The notes: generated by a model not told the origin, from the sequence alone. Positions 1 to 18,670 are shown, counted from the stretch's first letter. The stretch: DNA of 23,078 nt from a virus (IMGVR_UViG_3300031949_000010), one strand, 5' to 3'. Program-made: numbers and translations.

Positions 1-1
1 C

Positions 2-25
2 TCGGCGCTCGACGTGGTGGACTGA
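2..25 (+). CDS. Possible 3' end of an upstream ORF (partial, ...SALDVVD*)
   Basis: Open frame from the window edge to TGA at 23-25 with GC-ending codons; too short to identify. Confidence 0.3.
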   Translation, partial: SALDVVD

Positions 26-104
26 CCCGGCGAGGGCTGAGATGGTCCGGTGTGGGTGCCTTGCGCCCGACGACTCGGAGCACCCGCAGTAGGGGAGTCG
101 CGCA

Positions 105-575
105 ATGGACATTCGGTGCATTTCGCTCATGGAGCCATGGGCAAGCCTCGTCGCCCTGGGCTACAAGCGGATCGAGACGCGCGGCTGGGCGACCGCCTAC
201 CGCGGCCCTCTGGGGATCCACGCCTCCAGATCGACCAAGTGCCTAAAGGACGGCTTTCCCGACAAACTCTGCGAGAGGGCGAACCTGTTCTTCCGGTTCG
301 GCCCAGACTACCCCTGGCCGTTCGGGCGGATTCTCTGCATGAGCGACATCAGGGCCTGCGTCCGGACAGACCTCATGACGCGCCCCGTCGAGCCCCGAGA
401 GATCGCCCTGGGCGACTTCTCGTTCACGTCGGAGCGAAAGAGGTACGGGTTCGTGCTGTCCCCTCCAAAGCTCCTCGCCGACGGCATCCCTCACTGTGGG
501 TCCCTCAGTTTGTGGGAGCCCTCGATCGAGGCGATGGTAAAGATCCGAGGTCTGCTCTCTGGAGCCGGAGTCTGA
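105..575 (+). CDS. ASCH-domain protein (ASC-1 homology, PUA-like)
   Basis: ISLMEPWASLVALGYKRIETRGWATAYRGPLGIHAS matches the ASCH signature (SLxxPWA...GxKxxExR.W...RG.L.IHA); C-terminal GSLSLW; SD GGGGAG upstream. Confidence 0.9.
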   Translation: MDIRCISLMEPWASLVALGYKRIETRGWATAYRGPLGIHASRSTKCLKDGFPDKLCERANLFFRFGPDYPWPFGRILCMSDIRACVRTDLMTRPVEPREIALGDFSFTSERKRYGFVLSPPKLLADGIPHCGSLSLWEPSIEAMVKIRGLLSGAGV

Positions 576-576
576 G

Positions 577-2418
577 GTGCGGGAAGGAGATGCCCTGAAT
601 GGCCTGGCTCTATTCGCCGGTGTTGCCGGTCTCGAAAGAGGCCTTGATCTTGTCCTCGGAAGAGCCTATCAAACCGTGTGTTATGTCGAGCGGGACGCTT
701 ACGCCGCGGCCGACCTCGTGGCACGGATGGAAGACGAGGTCCTGGATCCGGCTCCTGAATGGGACGACGTTTCCACCTTCGATCCTATCCCGTGGCGTGG
801 AATCGTGGATCTCGTCGCTGGCGGCTTCCCGTGCACCGACATTTCCGACGCCGGGAAGCGTGCCGGGATCGGAGGAGCCAAGAGTGGCCTCTGGAAACAG
901 TACGCCCGAATCATCGCCGCCCTCCGACCCGCCATCGTCTGGGCCGAGAACGTCGGGGCTCTCGTTCGCCGTGGGCTCGACGTTGTCCTCGAGGACCTTG
1001 CCGCCCTCGGGTACGATGCGGAATGGATGTGTCTCCGCGCGTCCGACGTGGGTGCCCCCCACGGCCGGAAGAGGCTCTTCCTCCTCGCCATCCGGCAGGA
1101 CCTCCTGGACGACACCATGCGCGACGGAGGAGGACCGGGGCGGGCAGAAGTACGCTCAGGGCGGCACGCCGCTCAGGAGCCAGGCCTCGAACTTGGCCAC
1201 GCCGAACGTGCCGAACGGCGGGAGGACGATGACGCCGGAGGAGGTGGCAGCGAGGGGCGCGACAGAGAGGGGGAAGCGCCAGGTGCCCCTGGAAATGGAG
1301 GCAAGGTTCTGGCCGACGCCCTACGGATTTCAGGCGGGGAACGGCCCGGACGGGAACGAATTCTCGAAGGCGATGAGGAGGCTTGCCCAATCATCGCCCA
1401 ACTCCGCGAACTCGGAATCGCCGTCGAGCCCTGCCCGGACAACGGGGCCGACCCGGATGGCGAGGACCGATGGCACACCGACGGATACTGCTCCAACCTT
1501 GCAGGCCTCAGGGGCCTGCTCGATGAGGCGCTGGCCGACACCGAGGGCTTCGGCGAGCGAGCAGAGGACGCACCAGCGGCCGCCGTCCCACGACAAGGGA
1601 CACGGGGGGAACCTCTCTTCGGAAGCCGAGAACTGGCCGACGCCAACAGCGCAGGACTGCGAGAGCTCGGGCAATCGCCCCGGGAAGTCGGGCGCGGCCG
1701 ACGGCCTGACGAAGGCGGCGAGGTCGCACGCGGGGACGTCGCTCACGGACCTGGCGGCGAGGAAGTGGTCGACCCCTCGCTCGGAGGACTCGGAGTCGTG
1801 CGGGAAGCATCCCGGAAGCAAGGGCGGCGACTCGTTGACGGCGCAGATCCAGAACTGGCCGACGCCGGCGACGAACCCTCAGGCACCGAACCGGAACTCG
1901 AACACAGTGAACGGACCGACGAGCCTGGAGCAGGCGGCGCTGGAGAACTGGCCGACTCCCACATCGTCGGACAGAACCGGGATGAGCGCGGGCGACCGGA
2001 AGTCGAGCCTGCGGAACGGCGTGCAGGCTTGGCCGACACCGAGCGCCCGGGACATGAAGGGGACGGACATCCCGAACCATCGCGGCGGCGCAAGCCTATC
2101 GCACTACGTGGAGACTGGGCAGAGGTGCCACCCTTCCCCCCGGGACCCGGGGAGCGCGACCGATGGGAGGCGCTCCTCTCCCACAGCCCGCAGCTCGCCC
2201 CTGCGATTAAACCCCGCCTTCGTGTCGTTCTTGATGGGCTGGCCATGGTGGTGGACAAGGGCCGAACGGATCAACTTCGCTGCGCGGGAAATGGAGTCGT
2301 ACCTCTTCAGGCAGCGGTCGCTTTTGCGATCCTTGCTGGCCGGTTCGGGTTTCTGCCAGAGGTGAGGGTCGGACCGAAGGGTCCCTTCCTGGTTGCGGCG
2401 GAGGGCGCGCCGGGCTAG
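577..2418 (+). CDS. C5-cytosine DNA methyltransferase, catalytic (alpha-like) polypeptide
   Basis: Motif I LFAGVAG, IV GGFPC, VI ENV, VIII ASDVGAPHGRKRLF, X GNGVVP (2287). No motif IX in this frame. Start uncertain: GTG 577 or CTG 595 (LNGLALFAG). Confidence 0.92.
   Translation: MREGDALNGLALFAGVAGLERGLDLVLGRAYQTVCYVERDAYAAADLVARMEDEVLDPAPEWDDVSTFDPIPWRGIVDLVAGGFPCTDISDAGKRAGIGGAKSGLWKQYARIIAALRPAIVWAENVGALVRRGLDVVLEDLAALGYDAEWMCLRASDVGAPHGRKRLFLLAIRQDLLDDTMRDGGGPGRAEVRSGRHAAQEPGLELGHAERAERREDDDAGGGGSEGRDREGEAPGAPGNGGKVLADALRISGGERPGRERILEGDEEACPIIAQLRELGIAVEPCPDNGADPDGEDRWHTDGYCSNLAGLRGLLDEALADTEGFGERAEDAPAAAVPRQGTRGEPLFGSRELADANSAGLRELGQSPREVGRGRRPDEGGEVARGDVAHGPGGEEVVDPSLGGLGVVREASRKQGRRLVDGADPELADAGDEPSGTEPELEHSERTDEPGAGGAGELADSHIVGQNRDERGRPEVEPAERRAGLADTERPGHEGDGHPEPSRRRKPIALRGDWAEVPPFPPGPGERDRWEALLSHSPQLAPAIKPRLRVVLDGLAMVVDKGRTDQLRCAGNGVVPLQAAVAFAILAGRFGFLPEVRVGPKGPFLVAAEGAPG
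599..2365 (+). CDS. Overprinted +1-frame methyltransferase partner (beta-like polypeptide) with WPTP repeats and motif IX-like LNPAFVSFLMGWP
   Basis: 588 codons open inside the MTase gene; ATG 599 has AGGAG 9 nt upstream; nine W[PST]TP/LATP units; LNPxFVxxLMGWP at 2207, just before motif X of the other frame. Confidence 0.75.
   Translation: MAWLYSPVLPVSKEALILSSEEPIKPCVMSSGTLTPRPTSWHGWKTRSWIRLLNGTTFPPSILSRGVESWISSLAASRAPTFPTPGSVPGSEEPRVASGNSTPESSPPSDPPSSGPRTSGLSFAVGSTLSSRTLPPSGTMRNGCVSARPTWVPPTAGRGSSSSPSGRTSWTTPCATEEDRGGQKYAQGGTPLRSQASNLATPNVPNGGRTMTPEEVAARGATERGKRQVPLEMEARFWPTPYGFQAGNGPDGNEFSKAMRRLAQSSPNSANSESPSSPARTTGPTRMARTDGTPTDTAPTLQASGACSMRRWPTPRASASEQRTHQRPPSHDKGHGGNLSSEAENWPTPTAQDCESSGNRPGKSGAADGLTKAARSHAGTSLTDLAARKWSTPRSEDSESCGKHPGSKGGDSLTAQIQNWPTPATNPQAPNRNSNTVNGPTSLEQAALENWPTPTSSDRTGMSAGDRKSSLRNGVQAWPTPSARDMKGTDIPNHRGGASLSHYVETGQRCHPSPRDPGSATDGRRSSPTARSSPLRLNPAFVSFLMGWPWWWTRAERINFAAREMESYLFRQRSLLRSLLAGSGFCQR
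1106..2045 (+). repeat. Nine dispersed copies of a TGG(C/T/A)CGAC-type unit (WPTP in +1 frame, LAD[A/T/S] in MTase frame)
   Basis: Copies at 1106, 1193 (variant), 1310, 1532, 1634, 1766, 1856, 1949, 2030, all in the same frame. Confidence 0.85.
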
Positions 2419-2421
2419 AAT
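2393..2421 (+). promoter_or_regulatory. Putative sigma70-type promoter TTGCGG-N17-TAGAAT
   Basis: -35 at 2393-2398, -10 at 2416-2421, 17-nt spacer, upstream of ORF 2443. Confidence 0.55.
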
Positions 2422-2442
2422 CGGGCGGAGGAACACGAGGAC

Positions 2443-2883
2443 GTGGGCGACACCGCCTGCAAGCGCTGTGGCGCTGCCGCCGCGCAGGAAGCGCTGATCG
2501 AAGGCCTCTGCGCGCCGTGCGTCTTCTCGCTCGCGGATAGCCAATCGTCCTCGACGCGCGAGGAGATCCGCCGGAAGGCCGAGGTGGTGCGGGCGGAGAC
2601 GGCCGGGCTCTTCCCCGAGGAGGGCCTCCGCTCCATCATCGAGGGGCTCTGGGACGCCGCAGAAGCCGGCGCGGACAGGGAGGTCGAGGTGGTCCGGACC
2701 ATGCTCGAGATCCAGAGGGCTGGCGGTTTGGGGGCCTCAAGGGACATGATGGCCGTGGCCGAGGGCTTCAGGGAGCTCTCCGGGAAGCTCAAGACGGCCC
2801 TCGAGGACTTCGCCGAGGCCATGGAGGAGGAGGTCCGGAGGAAGATTCGGCTCCTCTCCAAGGCCGGAAACCGGGACGCGTGA
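2443..2883 (+). CDS. Hypothetical protein, N-terminal CxxC...CxxC zinc ribbon plus helical C-terminus
   Basis: CKRC...CAPC; GAGG SD; ATGA overlap with the DnaJ gene. Confidence 0.7.
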   Translation: MGDTACKRCGAAAAQEALIEGLCAPCVFSLADSQSSSTREEIRRKAEVVRAETAGLFPEEGLRSIIEGLWDAAEAGADREVEVVRTMLEIQRAGGLGASRDMMAVAEGFRELSGKLKTALEDFAEAMEEEVRRKIRLLSKAGNRDA

Positions 2884-3575
2884 TGGCCGACCCCTATGTC
2901 GTCCTGGGCGTCGTCCCCGGCGCGCCGGCCGACCAGGTGCGGGCCGCGTACCGCCGACTGGCCGCCGAGCTCCATCCGGACAGGAACCCGGGAAATCCAT
3001 CGGCCGCGCGCCGGTTCAGAGAGGTCTCGGAGGCCTACACTAGGATCAACTCGGGCTCCCCGGCAAGGCCGACATCCCGGGTCGAGGAGGTGTCTCCTAT
3101 TTTCGCCGTGGGCGACATCCTGGGCGGCTTCGTCGACATGCTCTTCGGGGCCGCCCCGTCGTCGAGCAGGACGTCCGTCTGCCGCGCGCAGCTCGAGCTC
3201 GACCGGCGTTCGGCCTCGCTCGGCGCAAGGCGGGACGTCAAGGTCTCATGGGACGCCCCCTGCGCCTCCTGCGCCGGAGTGGGCGGCGAGCCCGGCGGGC
3301 CCTGCGGCGCGTGCGGGGGTAGCGGCAGGACGGGCGCGAGTTTGGGCCTCGTCCGGATCGTCGCCACGTGCAGGACCTGCATGGGCTCGGGGCGGGGCAC
3401 GCGGCCGTGCAGGGAGTGTGGCGGCGTGGGCGCGGTGCCGAGACGCGAGAGCATCGAGGTGGAGATCCCCGCCGGCGTGCGCGACGGTGCCAGGCTCGTT
3501 TACAGGAGCGCGGGACTCGCGGACGCTTTCGGCCGGCCGGTCGAGGTCTGGATCGACCTCACAGTGGCCCCGTGA
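2880..3575 (+). CDS. Compact DnaJ-family co-chaperone (J domain, zinc finger, truncated C-terminal domain)
   Basis: DPYVVLGV...AYRRLAAELHPD...F.EVSEAY; four CxxCxGxG repeats (CASCAGVG, CGACGGSG, CRTCMGSG, CRECGGVG); EIPAGVRDG. Confidence 0.9.
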   Translation: MMADPYVVLGVVPGAPADQVRAAYRRLAAELHPDRNPGNPSAARRFREVSEAYTRINSGSPARPTSRVEEVSPIFAVGDILGGFVDMLFGAAPSSSRTSVCRAQLELDRRSASLGARRDVKVSWDAPCASCAGVGGEPGGPCGACGGSGRTGASLGLVRIVATCRTCMGSGRGTRPCRECGGVGAVPRRESIEVEIPAGVRDGARLVYRSAGLADAFGRPVEVWIDLTVAP

Positions 3576-3649
3576 CACCGAAACTGCTAATGTGCTCCGA
3601 TTGCGGCGAGTGCAGGCGAGGAGGAAGCGGATGAAGGAGGAGAGGACAT

Positions 3650-4195
3650 ATGGCGAGCGCTGATGTTGTCCGGCTCCTGGGCGCGATCGAGCGCGGCTGG
3701 CAACTCGCACAGGCCGGCGCGGTTTCCGAGACGGAGTTCCTGCTCTTCCAGTCCATAGCGGCCGACGCCCTTCGGACCGTCTCCTCGATCGCGAGGGCCT
3801 ACCCGCTGACCTCGGACGAGGAGGAGACCATCCGGCAGGCGTCCCGGCGCGTGGAGGGCTTCACGGTGGCCCTCGAGGCGGCCGCAGAGCGCCCCAAGTG
3901 GTGGACCTGGGCCGCAGCCGGGCTTGCCGGCGCGGCGTTGGGCGCGGGCGCGGTGGCCCTCTTCTCGGACGACGGTGGCTCGCGCCGGATGTCCGGCCCA
4001 CGTGAGCGGAAGGGCGGGGTCCTCTGGCCAGCCCTCGCCGTCCTGGGCTCCGGGCTCGTGATCGGCGCGGCGGGTTTCCCTCATCGGGACTCGGTCGGGG
4101 GCGCGCTCGCGATCGGAGCCGGGTCGAGCGCCGCCGGCGCCGCCCTCACGTTGCTTGTCCTTCATCTTTCGGGTTCGGACCTGTTGGCCGCATGA
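3650..4195 (+). CDS. Membrane protein with 2-3 Gly/Ala-rich hydrophobic helices
   Basis: Strong SD AAGGAGGAGAGG; WWTWAAAGLAGAALGAGAVALF, VLWPALAVLGSGLVIGAAG, GALAIGAGSSAAGAALTLLVL. Confidence 0.75.
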   Translation: MASADVVRLLGAIERGWQLAQAGAVSETEFLLFQSIAADALRTVSSIARAYPLTSDEEETIRQASRRVEGFTVALEAAAERPKWWTWAAAGLAGAALGAGAVALFSDDGGSRRMSGPRERKGGVLWPALAVLGSGLVIGAAGFPHRDSVGGALAIGAGSSAAGAALTLLVLHLSGSDLLAA

Positions 4196-5638: not shown

Positions 5639-5851
5639 ATGGCCCTTGAGGTCGAGATCGCCACATACCGGAGGCTCTGGCCCTCTCTCGTCCAGCGCCA
5701 CCTGGGCAAGCAGGTCCTGATCCAGGGTGATCGGCTGGTCGGCGCCTATCCAGACTATGGCTCCGCCCTCCGCGAGGCGACTAGGCTCTTCGGCACGAAT
5801 CCGTTCCTGATCCGGGAGGTCCGAGACCCGGAGCCGGTGGAGACCCTATGA
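5639..5851 (+). CDS. DUF5678-like small protein
   Basis: LEVEIATYRR...L...HLGKQVLIQGDRLVGAY..Y..A..EA...FG..PFLIREV resembles small proteins typically encoded directly before retropepsin-like proteases. Confidence 0.7.
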   Translation: MALEVEIATYRRLWPSLVQRHLGKQVLIQGDRLVGAYPDYGSALREATRLFGTNPFLIREVRDPEPVETL

Positions 5852-6468
5852 CGGCCGGCGAACGCGCGTTTTCGTTTGGTCGGGAGTCCTTGGCGGCCCC
5901 GAGGCGCAGGTCCCGGAACCTGCTGGGCGCGGCCGCGCCGTCCGCAGGAGCCTCCCTCAGGGACGAGGGCGCGATCATCCAGGTCACGATTCAGCAGCCC
6001 GTGTCCGTGGCGGCGCGCCTGAAGGGCGAGGGCCGGCAGGTCCCAGATCCGTTTCGGGCGCTCGCAATGGTGGACACCGGGGCCTCGATCACGGCGATCG
6101 AGCGGACGGTCGCCGAACGACTGGGGCTCCTCCAGACCGGGGTCGCCCCCGTCGCCGGCGTGACGGGCGTCGCGGAGCAGCCCGTCTATGCCGCATCGCT
6201 CGGCTTCCTCTCTCCGAGCTTCACGCTTGACCCCTGGTCGATGATCGGAAGCCCGATCGGTCGCCAGGGCTTTCATGTTCTCCTTGGACGGGATGTCCTT
6301 CAGCGGCTCCGGCTGATCTACGACGGGGCGTCGGGCGCATTCTCGCTCTCCCCCGCCGACGGAGGACTCGTATCTGGGCCCGGCATCGCGCGGGTAGCAG
6401 GTGTGGTTCTTGCGTTCGCGGGCGTGGGCACGGCTGCGGCCTTCGCGACCGGGCTGCTCAAGCCCTGA
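5848..6468 (+). CDS. Retropepsin-like (clan AA) aspartyl protease with C-terminal membrane anchor
   Basis: AMVDTGASITAI catalytic motif; LLGRDVL closing motif; hydrophobic tail VAGVVLAFAGVGTAAAFATGLL; ATGA coupling to 5639 ORF. Confidence 0.88.
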   Translation: MTAGERAFSFGRESLAAPRRRSRNLLGAAAPSAGASLRDEGAIIQVTIQQPVSVAARLKGEGRQVPDPFRALAMVDTGASITAIERTVAERLGLLQTGVAPVAGVTGVAEQPVYAASLGFLSPSFTLDPWSMIGSPIGRQGFHVLLGRDVLQRLRLIYDGASGAFSLSPADGGLVSGPGIARVAGVVLAFAGVGTAAAFATGLLKP

Positions 6469-9061: not shown

Positions 9062-11017
9062 ATGGCATCGGAGCTCACGCCCGCCATCCGCGAGGCGGTC
9101 GACGCGCTCTTCAGGCAGGGCGTCACGAAGGCCAGCGAGATCGTCGACACCCTGGCCCAGCGCAAGCTCAAGATCAACGCCATGCAGGTGGGTGGTCTCT
9201 GGACACTCTACCGCCGCAAGATGGCGGCCGAGCCCGGCGCGCCCAAGATGTCCCCCGACCCCCTGAAGCGTGCGGCAAGGGCGCAAGCGGACGCCGACGA
9301 CAGGCTGAAGTTGGGCGTGGGTGCCACGGACGACGGCTTCAACTGGTCTGGGGACGGGAAGGGCGGCGGGCTCGGGTTCGGGCAGTCCAGGGTAGAGGTG
9401 CACGTCACCCGCATCGCCCCCGCGAACGACGGCTTCCTCGGCGTCGAGGAGGACGGCCTCACACCCGACCAACTCGGCCGCAAGTACGGCTGGGGCACCT
9501 ACGACCTCGTGAAGTACGTGAACGGCACGAAGATCGCCACGTCGAGGATCTCGATCGCGAAAAGCTACGGCGACCCACGCGCCCCGCGGAACCCGGCCGT
9601 GCTGCCACGTCTCGTCCCCCGGGACGAGGAGGCGGAGAGGGCGACGCATCGGGCGCCCGAGAGCGGGTCGGCGGGACACCTGGGCGACGTGGTCCAGACC
9701 TTCAAGACCCTGAAGGACATCGCCGAGGCCGACCGGCCTGGCGCAACGGCTGCGGAAGCCAAAGTCATTGATCGTGCCCTCGAGGTCGCCATGGGCGGGA
9801 AGAGCGCGCCCGGGCAGGACGCCCTCGAGCGGTTCGTGAAGGAGCAGTCCGCAAGGGACGCCGCCGAACGCATCGCCGAGCGAGACCGCGAGAACGCCCG
9901 CCGCGCCGAGGAGCGCGAGCGGTGGAACCAGATGGAGAAGGAGAGGGAAGGGGCCCACACGCGCGAAATGGAACGTATCCGGGCTGAGGTGGCCGCGACT
10001 GAGAAGCGCGACCGCGAGTACCGGGACTTCCTCCAGAAGAACGAGAAGGACCGGGAGGCGCGTCTCGAGAAGGTGATCCAGGAGACGAACGAGTCCGTCC
10101 AGGGCCTCCAGGTGGCCATGAAGGATGAACTCGACAAGAACCTCGCCCACCAGCGGGAGTTGGCGAAGATCGAGCGCGACCGGCTCGACAGCGACCGCAC
10201 GCGCGACACGCGGGAGCTCGCGCAACTCAAGGAGCACCAGCAGCAACTCTTCGAGCTCCAGAGGCAGAGCCTGCCGGGCGCCGGATCGGACAAGGCGACC
10301 GAGATGATCGTCGGCCTGATCCAGAACGCGCTCGCGAAGGTCGAGACGAAGGCGAACGAGATCCTCCAACTCAAGAAGCTCGAGAAGGTGATCGCCGCGC
10401 TCGGCCCCGAGAACGCGCAGCAACTCGCCGCCGCCTTCATGCGGCAGGGCGGGATAGACCTCGGCAGCTTCCTGGGCGGACGCGGACCCGCCGCTCCGGG
10501 CGCCCGCCCGGCGGGGGCCGAGGGCGCGGCCACCGGCGGGGAGCCCAAGGCCGAGGCGAAAGAGGACCCGAAGGGGGACGGCATGAACGGCATCGCGCAG
10601 CAGGTCTACGGCACCCCCTTCTTCCGGGACCTCCTCTCGATCTGGTCGGGTCACCTGCGGATGAAGCGGACGCCTTATCTCTTCGCGAACCAACTCTGCG
10701 GCTACATGCTCGAGGACCGCCGGGTCGAGCTCTTCTACAACTACATGGCGGGCCTGACATGGCCCGAGTTCCTGGCGGAGATCCGGGACAAGGTTGATCC
10801 GGACAGGCTGCCGCTCTTCGAGGCCCCAGAGGCCTTGGCGTTCTTCGACGCGGTGATCGACCTCGTTGCGCAACGGGTGGAGAAGGACCACGTCGACCGG
10901 AACATCGTACCGAGGAAGGCAGCGGGGGCGGGGGCGGCCATGGCAGTCCCGGCTGCGGAGGCCGCGTCCGCCAACGGGAGCGCGGCCACGCCTGCCATGG
11001 AGGGCGGCTCGAAATGA
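9062..11017 (+). CDS. Large coiled-coil protein (N-terminal helical/HTH-like region, YGWGTY domain, E/R/K-rich coil, helical C-terminal domain)
   Basis: SD GGAGG; strongly GC-ending codons; long charged heptad-like stretch; ATGA overlap with next gene. Confidence 0.85.
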   Translation: MASELTPAIREAVDALFRQGVTKASEIVDTLAQRKLKINAMQVGGLWTLYRRKMAAEPGAPKMSPDPLKRAARAQADADDRLKLGVGATDDGFNWSGDGKGGGLGFGQSRVEVHVTRIAPANDGFLGVEEDGLTPDQLGRKYGWGTYDLVKYVNGTKIATSRISIAKSYGDPRAPRNPAVLPRLVPRDEEAERATHRAPESGSAGHLGDVVQTFKTLKDIAEADRPGATAAEAKVIDRALEVAMGGKSAPGQDALERFVKEQSARDAAERIAERDRENARRAEERERWNQMEKEREGAHTREMERIRAEVAATEKRDREYRDFLQKNEKDREARLEKVIQETNESVQGLQVAMKDELDKNLAHQRELAKIERDRLDSDRTRDTRELAQLKEHQQQLFELQRQSLPGAGSDKATEMIVGLIQNALAKVETKANEILQLKKLEKVIAALGPENAQQLAAAFMRQGGIDLGSFLGGRGPAAPGARPAGAEGAATGGEPKAEAKEDPKGDGMNGIAQQVYGTPFFRDLLSIWSGHLRMKRTPYLFANQLCGYMLEDRRVELFYNYMAGLTWPEFLAEIRDKVDPDRLPLFEAPEALAFFDAVIDLVAQRVEKDHVDRNIVPRKAAGAGAAMAVPAAEAASANGSAATPAMEGGSK

Positions 11018-16327: not shown

Positions 16328-17950
16328 ATGTCTTTACGCGGGTCCCGGGTCGGCGGCGTCCCGACGGACGAGGGCGTCTTCGGAACCGGCGCGCTCAACG
16401 AGAACATCGTCGGCGTCATCGTGCGCGCCGCAATGTCCGGGGAAGACGCTTCCGCAGCCGCGGGCTTCCGCAACGTCCCCATCGCCTCCCGCGCCGCGCT
16501 CGCCGCGCAGGCCTACACGGACCAGCGGCTGCTTGTTGACGGAGTGGTGCGCGGCGACGACGGGGTGACGTACAGCGCAATCCCGGCCCGCGCGGGAAAT
16601 GTCGCGATCTCCGAGAGCATCGTGGGTCTGCTTGTGGATGCTCGGGTGGTCGGATGGGACTCCGACGCGGTCGCGGGCTCACAAAACATTCCTGTTCAGG
16701 CTCGCAACGCCGTCGCCGCGCAGTCGTACACTGTGTACCGCCTTCTGACTGATTCCGTCCTCCGCGGCGATGACGGGGCGACGTGGAGCGCAGTCGCAGC
16801 CAGGAACTGGGATGCTGACGGGGATGCCGGATCCACCCTCATCGGTCTTATCGTAAACGCCAGGCTCGCAACCGTGACAGGTGCGTCTGGAGGGGCGACG
16901 GTTAACCGGCTTTACGCCGATCTTCCGTCCGGAATATCCGGAACCACAGATACTGCGGTATTCGCACTCTGGACCGCTTCGTACTGCGTCGGCAGAGACA
17001 CGACGGGCGCCGCCGTTGCGCGACCCGTAGAAGCGAGGGACTATGGCGTAGATGGGGACGCAGACGCCGCTCTGATCGGACTTCTCACGAATGCTAGAAA
17101 CGCAGTTTTCCAAACCCCCACATCAAGCGTCTGGACACGCATATCAGGGGATGCCGTAAGCAGTCTGACGGGTGAATCGACCGGCTCGCAAGTGTGGACG
17201 CGCGTTGCTTCGTCTCTATTCGGCGTCGACACAACCGGCGCCGCCGTGGTCAGGTCGGTGGAGGCGCGGAATGCTGACGCAGACGGTGACTTTGCCACGA
17301 CGCTGATAGGCTTGCTGGTAAATTCGCGTAACGCTCTTCTCGATGCGTCATCCGGTGGATGGGTCATCCAAGGCGGACTCCGAGAAGTGACTGGCGGTGT
17401 GGACGCTGCGCTGATATATGAGACGAGGGAGAGTGGATACGTTTCTTCCATTCGCGAGCGCCGCTTCATCGCGACCTCCCAGACCGCCGGAGCCACTCTC
17501 ACCGCCCAGGCTGCTTTCGTCGCGACGACCCCGACGCTCATGTTGCGACAAGCGGCGGGAGCGACCGAGACGGAAGTCGTCCGGTCCATCTCGATCACTT
17601 CCTTCGCGGCAACTCCAGCCGGGATCCGCGTCGTCGTGATGCTGGATCCGGATGACCGCTTCTCGGCCGGCGGCACGGCGGTCGTGCCTCAGAATCCGAA
17701 CGAAGGCTCGGCTGCTGCCAGCGGCATCACAAGCTTCCTCGAGAACCCGACCGCGACGGCCGCGGACGCGGACGAGCGGATCATCTACAACGAGGGGTTC
17801 GCGGGTGGGGTCGGTGCCAAGCTGGTCCTTGAGTTCAAGGACGAGATGATCCTCTCCGGGGTCGGCACGATCCTCGTCTACGTCTTCGACTCTGCCGGGG
17901 CTGCCGCGCCGACGATCGCTTGGAATTTTGAGTGGGAGGAGTATGTGTAA
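16328..17950 (+). CDS. Putative spike/receptor-binding protein with 71-78 aa internal repeats and beta-rich C-terminal domain
   Basis: TAAATG coupling; five [IL][VI]G[LV][LI]xx[AS] cores; A/G/T/V-rich; ends WNFEWEEYV. Confidence 0.75.
   Translation: MSLRGSRVGGVPTDEGVFGTGALNENIVGVIVRAAMSGEDASAAAGFRNVPIASRAALAAQAYTDQRLLVDGVVRGDDGVTYSAIPARAGNVAISESIVGLLVDARVVGWDSDAVAGSQNIPVQARNAVAAQSYTVYRLLTDSVLRGDDGATWSAVAARNWDADGDAGSTLIGLIVNARLATVTGASGGATVNRLYADLPSGISGTTDTAVFALWTASYCVGRDTTGAAVARPVEARDYGVDGDADAALIGLLTNARNAVFQTPTSSVWTRISGDAVSSLTGESTGSQVWTRVASSLFGVDTTGAAVVRSVEARNADADGDFATTLIGLLVNSRNALLDASSGGWVIQGGLREVTGGVDAALIYETRESGYVSSIRERRFIATSQTAGATLTAQAAFVATTPTLMLRQAAGATETEVVRSISITSFAATPAGIRVVVMLDPDDRFSAGGTAVVPQNPNEGSAAASGITSFLENPTATAADADERIIYNEGFAGGVGAKLVLEFKDEMILSGVGTILVYVFDSAGAAAPTIAWNFEWEEYV
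16397..17330 (+). repeat. Protein-level tandem repeats (A-A-B-B-partial) in the spike gene
   Basis: Cores at 16406, 16619, 16838, 17072, 17303; type A contains RGDDGxT[YW]SA, type B contains GxDTTGAAVxRxVEAR. Confidence 0.85.
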
Positions 17951-18575
17951 CATACTTCTTGCCCTGATGTGGACAACGTCCATAGAAGCCAATGGCCATA
18001 TTGCAGTTGTGGCACAGCACACGAAAGCCTTTCGGCCATCCGGCCCTTCTCAACCAAACGGCCATTTCGAATCCACGATAAGAAGTCTTCTTCCGATGCT
18101 TCTCTCCTCCCCCCTTTTTGTGGTCGAGAGCAAGGAATTCGTAGGCCGACTCTCCACAACATGCACATTGGGGAGGATCTCCACCGTAATGAGTCAGCGC
18201 CAGCAGACGAATTCTTTTCTTGCTTGCTCTAGAAGACTTTCTGTAGAAGTTCGGGTTTTTCCTTCTCCTATTCCTGATGTACACACGACAGCATTCGCAA
18301 CACCATGTCTTGAGCTTGTCTTGGCGGCTGTTGTCCAGTGTGTACATATGAAGCGGTCGCGCGATCCCACACCGTTTGCATATCCTGAGAATAAGCGACC
18401 GTCTGCGTTTTTTCCTACGGATGTATCCGTTGGAGCAAGATATACATATTGCGGACAGGCCATCCTTGGATTTTCCAGAAAGACGAAACGCACAACGCCT
18501 TTTCCAAGACGCGCAATAGATACATCTTTTGCGGTTGCGAAACTGGAACGGTATGATCGGTTGATCCATAGCCAT
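17835..18575 (-). CDS. Free-standing HNH-type endonuclease with two N-terminal CxxC...CxxC modules
   Basis: CACCGE...FLALDHKKGGG...FRVLCHNCN...CPH; SD GGAGG before ATG 18575; markedly lower GC; only convincing minus-strand gene. Confidence 0.85.
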   Translation of the reverse strand: MAMDQPIIPFQFRNRKRCIYCASWKRRCAFRLSGKSKDGLSAICISCSNGYIRRKKRRRSLILRICKRCGIARPLHMYTLDNSRQDKLKTWCCECCRVYIRNRRRKNPNFYRKSSRASKKRIRLLALTHYGGDPPQCACCGESAYEFLALDHKKGGGEKHRKKTSYRGFEMAVWLRRAGWPKGFRVLCHNCNMAIGFYGRCPHQGKKYVTHTPPTQNSKRSSARQPRQSRRRRRGSCRPRRGSSRP

Positions 18576-18603
18576 GCGCCCTCCATAGCGCAGGTTGTGG
18601 CCA

Positions 18604-18646
18604 GAGGCCGACGCCCGTGTCTGCGGGTATCGGCCTCGTTTATTAT
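18604..18646. terminator. Strong hairpin followed by T-rich tract on + strand
   Basis: GAGGCCGA..CCCG/CGGG..TCGGCCTC (18604-18637) then GTTTATTAT. Confidence 0.55.
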
Positions 18647-18670
18647 CGGACAATTCGAAGAACGAGTCAA
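18642..18670 (-). promoter_or_regulatory. Putative promoter for the HNH gene, TTGACT-N17-GATAAT
   Basis: -35 at 18670-18665, -10 at 18647-18642 on the minus strand. Confidence 0.6.

Follow-up and report, generated by a model that had tools for sequence, protein, structure and literature searches.

Two fully nested reading frames on a virus-like element probably encode an orphan two-chain DNA cytosine-C5 methyltransferase

Can one stretch of viral DNA, read in two frames, supply both chains of a single DNA methyltransferase? The question is raised by positions 577 to 2418 of a 23,078-nucleotide (nt) stretch of the virus IMGVR_UViG_3300031949_000010 (the window), where the gene lies on a contig of ~96 kb from a virus-like element of soil. 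Alpha (577-2418, plus strand) starts with GTG and comprises 613 amino acids (aa), and beta (599-2365, plus strand), which starts with ATG and comprises 588 aa, is an open reading frame (ORF) in the +1 frame that lies entirely within alpha and has no internal stop, the dual-coded overlap being 1,767 nt. Both ORFs had been called in an earlier reading of the sequence (the original prediction), and their coordinates were borne out; the pair had further been likened to the two-subunit enzyme M.EcoHK31I. Our analysis leads to a similar view. Very probably, the locus is dual-coding and specifies both chains of an orphan DNA cytosine-C5 methyltransferase; stop suppression in the family, frame-specific selection, natural fusions and a co-folding prediction all agree with this reading.

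Pfam family PF00145 matched alpha residues 10-176 (E 3e-30), and alpha contains motifs I, IV, VI, VIII and X of C5 methyltransferases (Table 1). Residues C86, E124, N125, R164 and R166 of alpha were invariant among 148 sequences. As the original prediction had it, motif IX is missing from this chain: a profile of the IX-like segment of beta matched beta (E 2e-10) and nothing in alpha. Beta was matched by phrog_1008 (E 5e-25), and 158 beta homologues were found; PHROG 1008, labelled 'DNA methyltransferase', corresponds to the beta family and also matches alpha motif X. Searches with beta in Pfam and against PDB sequences and folds gave no match (best Z 2.7, from a poor model), and these blank searches say nothing on novelty. 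The ESM Atlas assigned beta to C5 methylase clusters at 0.95; this was not used, as a wrong frame over a real gene can score likewise.

We then asked how unusual the open +1 frame is. The 19 neighbouring ORFs had 106 +1-frame stops in 3,936 codons (2.7 per 100), and ~16 would be expected over 588 codons. When the alpha protein was fixed and its codons were resampled, the probability of no +1 stop was 0.0098; the reciprocal test gave 0.0002, and the alpha frame stays open through its middle with P = 0.002. For a single gene of 67% GC such statistics are suggestive only, and relatives were therefore analysed. Selection on alpha motifs I-VIII alone yielded 240 loci, drawn from viral contigs, GTDB genomes and metagenomes, and 126 non-redundant loci with motifs I and X in alpha formed the stop test set, with the expectation taken from flank codon usage and the alpha protein fixed. 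Two +1-frame stops were observed against ~707 expected (2 against 518 over motifs I-VIII alone), and 124 of the 126 loci were stop-free, compared with 1.6 expected. The openness holds over a GC range of ~40% to 70%, the +2 frame is mostly full of stops, and four single-chain methylases, from AT-richer plasmids, each had 22-39 stops of this kind. Since alpha wobble positions are largely free to vary, stops could have arisen in the +1 frame. The open frame is not due to chance.

Other assemblies gave the same picture. The identical 613-aa alpha with identical neighbours was present in ENA and Logan assemblies, whose samples may be common with the window. Run X2, from a different soil study, contained five pieces identical to the window, and run X3, from a sister strain, spans 422-2600 in two contigs with 64 + 30 substitutions and no gaps. 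Assembly frameshifts joining the motifs in one frame, which had been named as a possible undoing of the original prediction, occurred neither in these assemblies nor in the sister strain. None of the 28 listed X3 changes within the overlap creates a stop in either frame; this count and the silent-change counts given below refer to the changes listed, 40 of 113 variant rows.

The frame under selection differs along the gene. Over motifs I-VIII, identity to the relatives L011 and L012 was 73-75% for alpha and 61-65% for beta, and beta mostly only stays open there, barring few sites. In the beta hairpin over alpha motif VII, the alpha four-fold wobble bases at the beta Pro and Gly residues are fixed (GCC 100%, GGG 100%). 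In the middle of the gene, which holds an array of repeated W-x-T-P modules in beta, earlier statistics on module pairs had been biased by choosing the pairs on beta identity, and the test was repeated on matches selected at the DNA level: 23 of 23 were in frame, and mismatches fell at 17, 15 and 38% of beta codon positions 1, 2 and 3, respectively. Both frames are conserved at the IX-like segment, where alpha wobble bases were 95-100% fixed at ten listed codons. In the sister strain, 10 of 12 listed changes in the core were silent in alpha, and 7 of 8 in modules 1 and 2 were silent in beta, the eighth restoring the consensus Trp. These patterns indicate that selection hands over from alpha (motifs I-VIII) to beta (middle) and then to both frames (IX and X). 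An open +1 frame in homologues and, at particular sites, restricted synonymous variation, both implied by the original prediction, were thus found.

In the IX-like segment, the spacing of Leu, Pro, Leu, Gly, an aromatic residue and Pro is as in motif IX of the single-chain enzyme L262. Natural fusions carry this segment into other chains. A Streptomyces phage (L009) has the IX-like segment and motif X in one chain, 32 residues apart compared with 29 in L262, and a Vibrio plasmid enzyme has the IX-like segment in its catalytic chain, after motif X (E 3e-5). The motif IX label on the beta segment rests on pattern, position and model.

The alpha model was confident over residues 1-180 and ~520-590 and disordered between. 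It could be superimposed on M.HhaI with a Z of 23.9 and a root mean square deviation of 2.5 over 202 aligned residues, covering model residues 5-595 and including the motif X helix; ~125 M.HhaI residues were left unmatched, which is about the size of the small domain. Alpha lacks conservation in its middle, which is disordered, acidic with a net charge of -30 and, in compact relatives, very short; hence no recognition domain is evident on this chain. When alpha 1-600 was co-folded with beta 440-588 and S-adenosylhomocysteine, the score was 0.89, compared with 0.00 for the best of three controls. Of 80 solved complexes 58 attained this mark, as did 2 of 110 mismatched pairs. Contact agreement between runs was at least 51%, and the partner had a predicted local distance difference test (pLDDT) score of at least 61. 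In the predicted interface, beta 534-565 contacts alpha 540-546, 559-577 and 42-55, and the last module lies within it. The pass may reflect likeness to solved methylases; as the halves of split enzymes tend to pass in this way, the co-fold supports a two-chain enzyme without proving binding. With that proviso, the co-folding proposed in the original prediction came out in its favour.

The module array of beta varies among relatives. We found 613 modules in 120 homologues, belonging to at least 35 recurring types that stand in different orders in different genes, and 7 of the 9 modules here have a close counterpart in L011, L012, L014 or L015. Module 3 is followed by a non-module linker, and in the alpha frame the array appears as LAD-type repeats. 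In the sister strain, one contig departs from the window at 1546, where module type 10 begins to be read, and another rejoins the window at 1531, following the final residues of that type; judged from these contig ends, an additional complete module appears to be present in this strain at a 16-nt repeat. By eye only, the T-P-x-A-x-D consensus of the modules resembles T-L-T-A-S-D at the TL position of L262. In the published TL motif, T-(I/L/V), DNA is contacted by the flanking residues, and the distance to the motif IX that follows is 10-50 residues (PMC2413257). Given their TL-like position and consensus before the IX-like segment, the modules are probably target-recognition elements and the array probably the DNA target-recognition region. 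The claim that beta supplies motif IX can accordingly be widened, with beta probably supplying the target-recognition region as well.

How nine modules would serve one enzyme is less certain. A two-chain enzyme with a single site, in which only the last module is used and the remaining eight, having arisen by repeat expansion, are inert or structural, is a serious candidate, if short of probable: most compact relatives have 0-3 modules, and the co-fold included the last module only. However, the internal modules are under purifying selection in the beta frame, and neutral duplication would not keep at least 35 types recurring across distant genes in varied orders. We tentatively consider, as a rather unlikely arrangement, that each of the nine modules docks in turn into the same alpha slot and reads a different DNA target, and that the element tunes its methylation by module gain and loss through recombination while both frames are kept open. 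If so, a swappable specificity array would be encoded wholly in an unannotated frame; modules acting as separate recognition units would form a natural library of short specificity cassettes and allow a test of tandem domains taking turns on one core.

Table 1. Coordinates of features at the methyltransferase locus, counted from the first letter of the window.
Feature	Position	Strand	Basis or remark
ASCH-like gene	105-575		phrog_3193, E 7e-23
GGAG, candidate Shine-Dalgarno sequence for alpha GTG 577	567-570	+	L011 has the identical 22-nt offset
AAGGAG, Shine-Dalgarno sequence for beta ATG 599, within the first codons of alpha	584-589	+	-8.8 kcal/mol
CTGAATG, counterpart of the family start knot; CTG is a weak alternative alpha start	595-601	+	
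Beta layout: from the N-terminus, the part overlying motifs I-VIII, then nine W-x-T-P modules, the IX-like segment and a helix at the C-terminus	599-2365	+	
Alpha motifs I-VIII region	610-1104	+	alpha is the more conserved frame; pLDDT mostly >90
Alpha motif I	610-630	+	
Alpha motif IV, GGFPC, catalytic PC	820-834	+	
Alpha motif VI, ENV	946-954	+	
Beta conserved hairpin (beta 134-147) over alpha motif VII	998-1039	+	wobble fixation and model
Alpha motif VIII	1060-1074	+	
Nine W-x-T-P modules in beta (beta 170-510), candidate target-recognition region	1106-2125	+	
Module starts	1106, 1193, 1310, 1532, 1634, 1766, 1856, 1949, 2030	+	27-44 aa each
Module boundary, 16-nt repeat, apparent extra module in sister strain	1531-1546	+	X3 contig ends
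Alpha conserved segment 5' of motif X, overlapping the beta IX-like segment	2128-2244	+	both frames conserved
Beta IX-like segment (beta 537-549)	2207-2245	+	
Beta C-terminal helix (beta 560-580)	2276-2338	+	predicted packing against the alpha motif X helix
Alpha motif X, GNGVVP	2287-2304	+	

Several points weigh against a two-chain enzyme of this kind. Most of the first 130 residues of beta show little amino-acid constraint beyond openness, and relatives share common ancestry, which makes their stop counts non-independent trials. About 12% of the loci are broken, rearranged or incomplete. Beta alone was modelled poorly (mean pLDDT 55, predicted template modelling score 0.32), the hairpin (strands 138-141 and 144-147, pLDDT 74-80), some modules, the IX-like segment and the last helix being its better parts. 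The modules read T-P where the TL consensus is T-(I/L/V), and the last one stands 57 residues before the IX-like segment here, compared with the 10-50 residues of the published motif (PMC2413257) and with a family median of ~41 once a 7-residue offset is added. Profile comparison of the IX-like segment with canonical motif IX was not significant. As to the statement that the +1 frame carries the missing motif IX, an IX-like segment lies at 2207-2245 whose pattern, spacing to X in contiguous relatives and predicted interface fit, but which has no significant match to the canonical profile.

These gaps leave some room for a beta chain that is real but non-catalytic, being a regulator, inhibitor or targeting factor, with alpha acting alone through a reduced small domain. 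Beta lacks Pfam and PDB matches, its TL and IX assignments do not reach significance at profile level, and motif X of alpha is preceded by a conserved segment in the alpha chain itself. We nevertheless consider this improbable, as natural fusions join the C-terminal half of beta with motif X or the catalytic core, alpha has no evident recognition domain, and methylation by M.EcoHK31I is abolished when its beta chain is removed (PMC2836561). Less probable still, and indeed very improbable, is a single polypeptide made by programmed frameshifting, in which translation would leave alpha after motifs I-VIII, read the modules and IX in the +1 frame and then return for X. This would give the canonical motif order, and motifs I-VIII are joined to the C-terminal half of beta in 2 of 240 loci (L016 and L043) and in the database proteins P0071, P0133 and P0140; these joined forms, however, are frameshifts at the DNA level that leave X in another frame. 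Frameshifting would also leave unexplained the openness of beta over motifs I-VIII (2 stops against 518) from a conserved ATG with its own Shine-Dalgarno (SD) sequence, the conserved beta hairpin in the same region, and an alpha middle that stays open (P = 0.002). An artefact, whether a shadow ORF due to high GC or an ordinary gene for a single chain disrupted by assembly frameshifts, could appeal to a window of ~67% GC with many long spurious ORFs and to the conservative null of only P = 0.01 for the lone gene, but its probability is negligible and the comparative data refute it, since the two-frame layout also occurs at 37-45% GC the other assemblies contain the identical alpha or identical pieces of the window, and the sister strain has 94 substitutions and no gap.

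For the two-chain enzyme, then, the following scheme can be proposed. Ribosomes would start at GTG 577 for alpha and ATG 599 for beta and make two full-length proteins, of ~65 and 62 kDa, from one mRNA. Alpha would form the large catalytic domain, with S-adenosylmethionine binding, the catalytic cysteine and the motif X helix, and its 330-residue middle would be a passive, disordered by-product of the beta code. Beta would form the small domain, its IX-like segment and C-terminal helix docking on alpha, and DNA would be contacted by its W-x-T-P modules, which are probably a variant form of the TL motif found in target-recognition domains (TRDs). Modules, which are seen shuffled between relatives, would be gained, lost and exchanged via in-frame recombination between repeated starts.

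The start region is compatible with two initiation sites. SD pairing to the 9-base anti-SD was -8.8 kcal/mol at ATG 599 compared with -6.1 kcal/mol at GTG 577, which agrees with the better SD credited to beta in the original prediction; GTG 577 is located 2 nt past the stop of the upstream ASCH-like gene. In 86 of 112 relatives with an assigned beta start, the two starts form a knot, A/G/TTGAATG, consisting of the alpha start, a +1-frame TGA and the beta ATG 4 nt on. In the nearest relative, L011, the knot position holds a non-start and an ATG stands 22 nt upstream. This speaks for GTG 577 in our gene; alpha thus most likely starts 22 nt upstream of the beta ATG. Of the starts 4-22 nt apart and the possible common ribosome-binding region that had been proposed, the 22-nt spacing is supported, and a single common site is less likely here than in the usual 4-nt layout of the family. 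A promoter-like site was not found in window positions 1-3800. A two-codon ORF, ATG CCC TGA, lies at 590-598 in the beta frame between the SD and the beta ATG and is probably incidental.

The layout is that of a family. Alpha with motifs I-VIII and X, together with a +1 frame that has no stop between motif I and the IX-like segment, was found in 210 of the 240 loci; among the remainder, X follows the IX-like segment in the beta frame in 8, beta is partial or broken in 3, IX is joined to alpha in 2, and the others are incomplete, broken or arranged in another way. Named phages that share the layout include Burkholderia phi1026b, Acidovorax Alfacinha1, Pseudomonas phPA-G and Microcystis Mel-JY01. 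The overlap is shorter, with a beta of ~180-240 aa whose start lies within alpha, in Che9d and Paenibacillus phage Xenia and on one plasmid each from Bacteroides and Methanomethylovorans. In L263 (1-2610) both frames are open for at least 867 codons with ~14 modules, and in L264 both are open for >600 codons; dual coding across the family runs from ~0.7 kb to at least 2.6 kb. The gene studied here is not the longest member: the overlap of 1,767 nt agrees with a much longer version of the M.EcoHK31I design, as had been predicted, but it is neither a one-off nor the extreme case. Among named organisms, Myxococcus genomes contain the closest relatives of the catalytic core (68-72% identity). The tree had long outgroup branches and unsettled bootstrap values and was used for nearest relatives and for counting changes to X in beta, of which at least 3 are needed, and not for the direction of evolution. 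In L263, the beta start lies >200 nt upstream of alpha motif I, and the next gene is an N6/N4 methylase.

Annotation has recorded this family by halves. In every examined record with an alpha-type motif X only one frame is annotated; in the four phage records named first this is either alpha or beta, and the two-frame layouts around phi1026b gp67, Che9d gp80 and Xenia gp63, with full or partial overlap, are likewise annotated in one frame. It had been predicted that standard annotation would miss the second subunit. One frame is indeed lost, but it may be either, and gene callers often retain beta as 'hypothetical' and discard the catalytic alpha. Hundreds of phage and prophage 'DNA methyltransferase' entries would thus describe one half of an enzyme; the other chain would be lost if the annotated frame were cloned or codon-optimised, and specificity would be predicted from the wrong frame. 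Long overlaps on one strand are regarded as uncommon among prokaryotes and the phages that infect them. The present family is large and dual-coded along whole genes; two frames would build one enzyme, and selection visibly changes frame. In phi1026b (L005:2502-4622), the unannotated beta frame has no stop past the IX-like segment and continues into an annotated ParB-like gene, possibly giving a 706-aa beta-ParB fusion. In Mycobacterium phage Llama (L007:2501-3260), both frames are displaced, compared with the intact gene of Che9d, by a frameshift that follows motif VI; the locus is annotated as two methylase genes and is possibly a broken copy.

Three known systems invite comparison. M.EcoHK31I was reportedly described by Lee, Kam and Shaw in 1995, and its beta chain is ~176 aa long with an internal start. 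In this enzyme of E. coli HK31 (YGGCCR), beta lies wholly inside alpha in another frame, alpha carries motifs I-VIII plus X and beta has IX (PMC2836561, PMC3404938). The likeness is thus in two chains from one DNA stretch, a nested second frame and an alpha with motifs I-VIII and X, the beta studied here having an IX-like segment. The differences are that the overlap here is whole-gene with starts 22 nt apart, that the TRD of M.EcoHK31I is predicted on alpha (PMC2836561, PMC3404938) whereas the recognition-like modules here form a tandem array on beta, and that this gene is an orphan on a virus-like element whose beta is likened by layout and not by sequence.

M.AquI also consists of two polypeptides, and its second one carries motifs IX and X along with a portion of the variable region (PMC3404938). 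Our gene resembles it as a probable two-chain C5 methyltransferase whose second chain has part of the variable region and a IX-like motif; X, however, is on the second chain there and on alpha here. The M.AquI split with the overlap kept is seen in the relatives with X in beta (L009, L047, L252 and others). One of them, Streptomyces phage RemusLoopin (L009:2513-3566), has motifs I-VIII in one frame and the modules, IX and X in the overlapping +1 frame. HNH-like endonuclease sequence was seen in the third frame between IX and X in L047 (3223-3621) and L034 (3079-3810), both with X in the beta frame, and in L034 a module and the IX-like segment share its frame. Another arrangement was seen on a Vibrio cholerae plasmid, pNDM-116-14 (L260:1204-2448), and on many Vibrio and Alteromonas plasmids, where a single-chain C5 methylase is permuted to I-VIII, X, a module-like segment and a C-terminal IX-like segment.

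The multispecific enzymes of Bacillus phages are single chains. M.SPR, M.H2I, M.phi3T and M.rho11 have tandem recognition modules with several specificities (PMC8936443, PMC2413257). They share with this gene a phage origin and tandem modules between motif VIII and motif IX (here IX-like); their modules have TL motifs and separate targets have been shown for them, whereas the T-P modules here lie on an overprinted second chain and are candidates for specificity. A whole-length overlap, near-coincident starts and a module array on the hidden chain were not found in the papers searched. Likewise, no paper on this phage family was found, a weak negative as most subscription journals lay outside the search.

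As to its role, the gene is flanked by the ASCH-like gene, an unknown 146-aa gene and a DnaJ-like gene, and among the neighbouring genes examined no restriction endonuclease adjoins the methylase gene. In runs X3 and X4 there are contigs in which 148 other letters bridge positions 521 and 2454, and both forms occur in X3. Sister genomes thus lack the whole gene, and the gene is accessory. A Vsr gene, the usual repair partner of C5 methylases, lies directly upstream in the close relative L012, where only beta was called. The likeliest role would be anti-restriction, with the DNA of the element pre-methylated against host restriction. Further along the window, 2880-3575 encodes a compact DnaJ homologue with a J domain, a zinc finger and a C-terminal domain, and a similar gene lies near the methylase in L012. 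A 651-aa coiled-coil-like ORF without Pfam or PHROG match occupies 9062-11017, its 625-aa antisense ORF probably being a high-GC shadow. A gene at 5848-6468 encodes a retropepsin-like aspartyl protease (PF13650, PF13975) with a hydrophobic C-terminal tail, and an HNH or endonuclease VII-like gene lies at 17835-18653 on the minus strand, opposite to the apparent structural genes that surround it.

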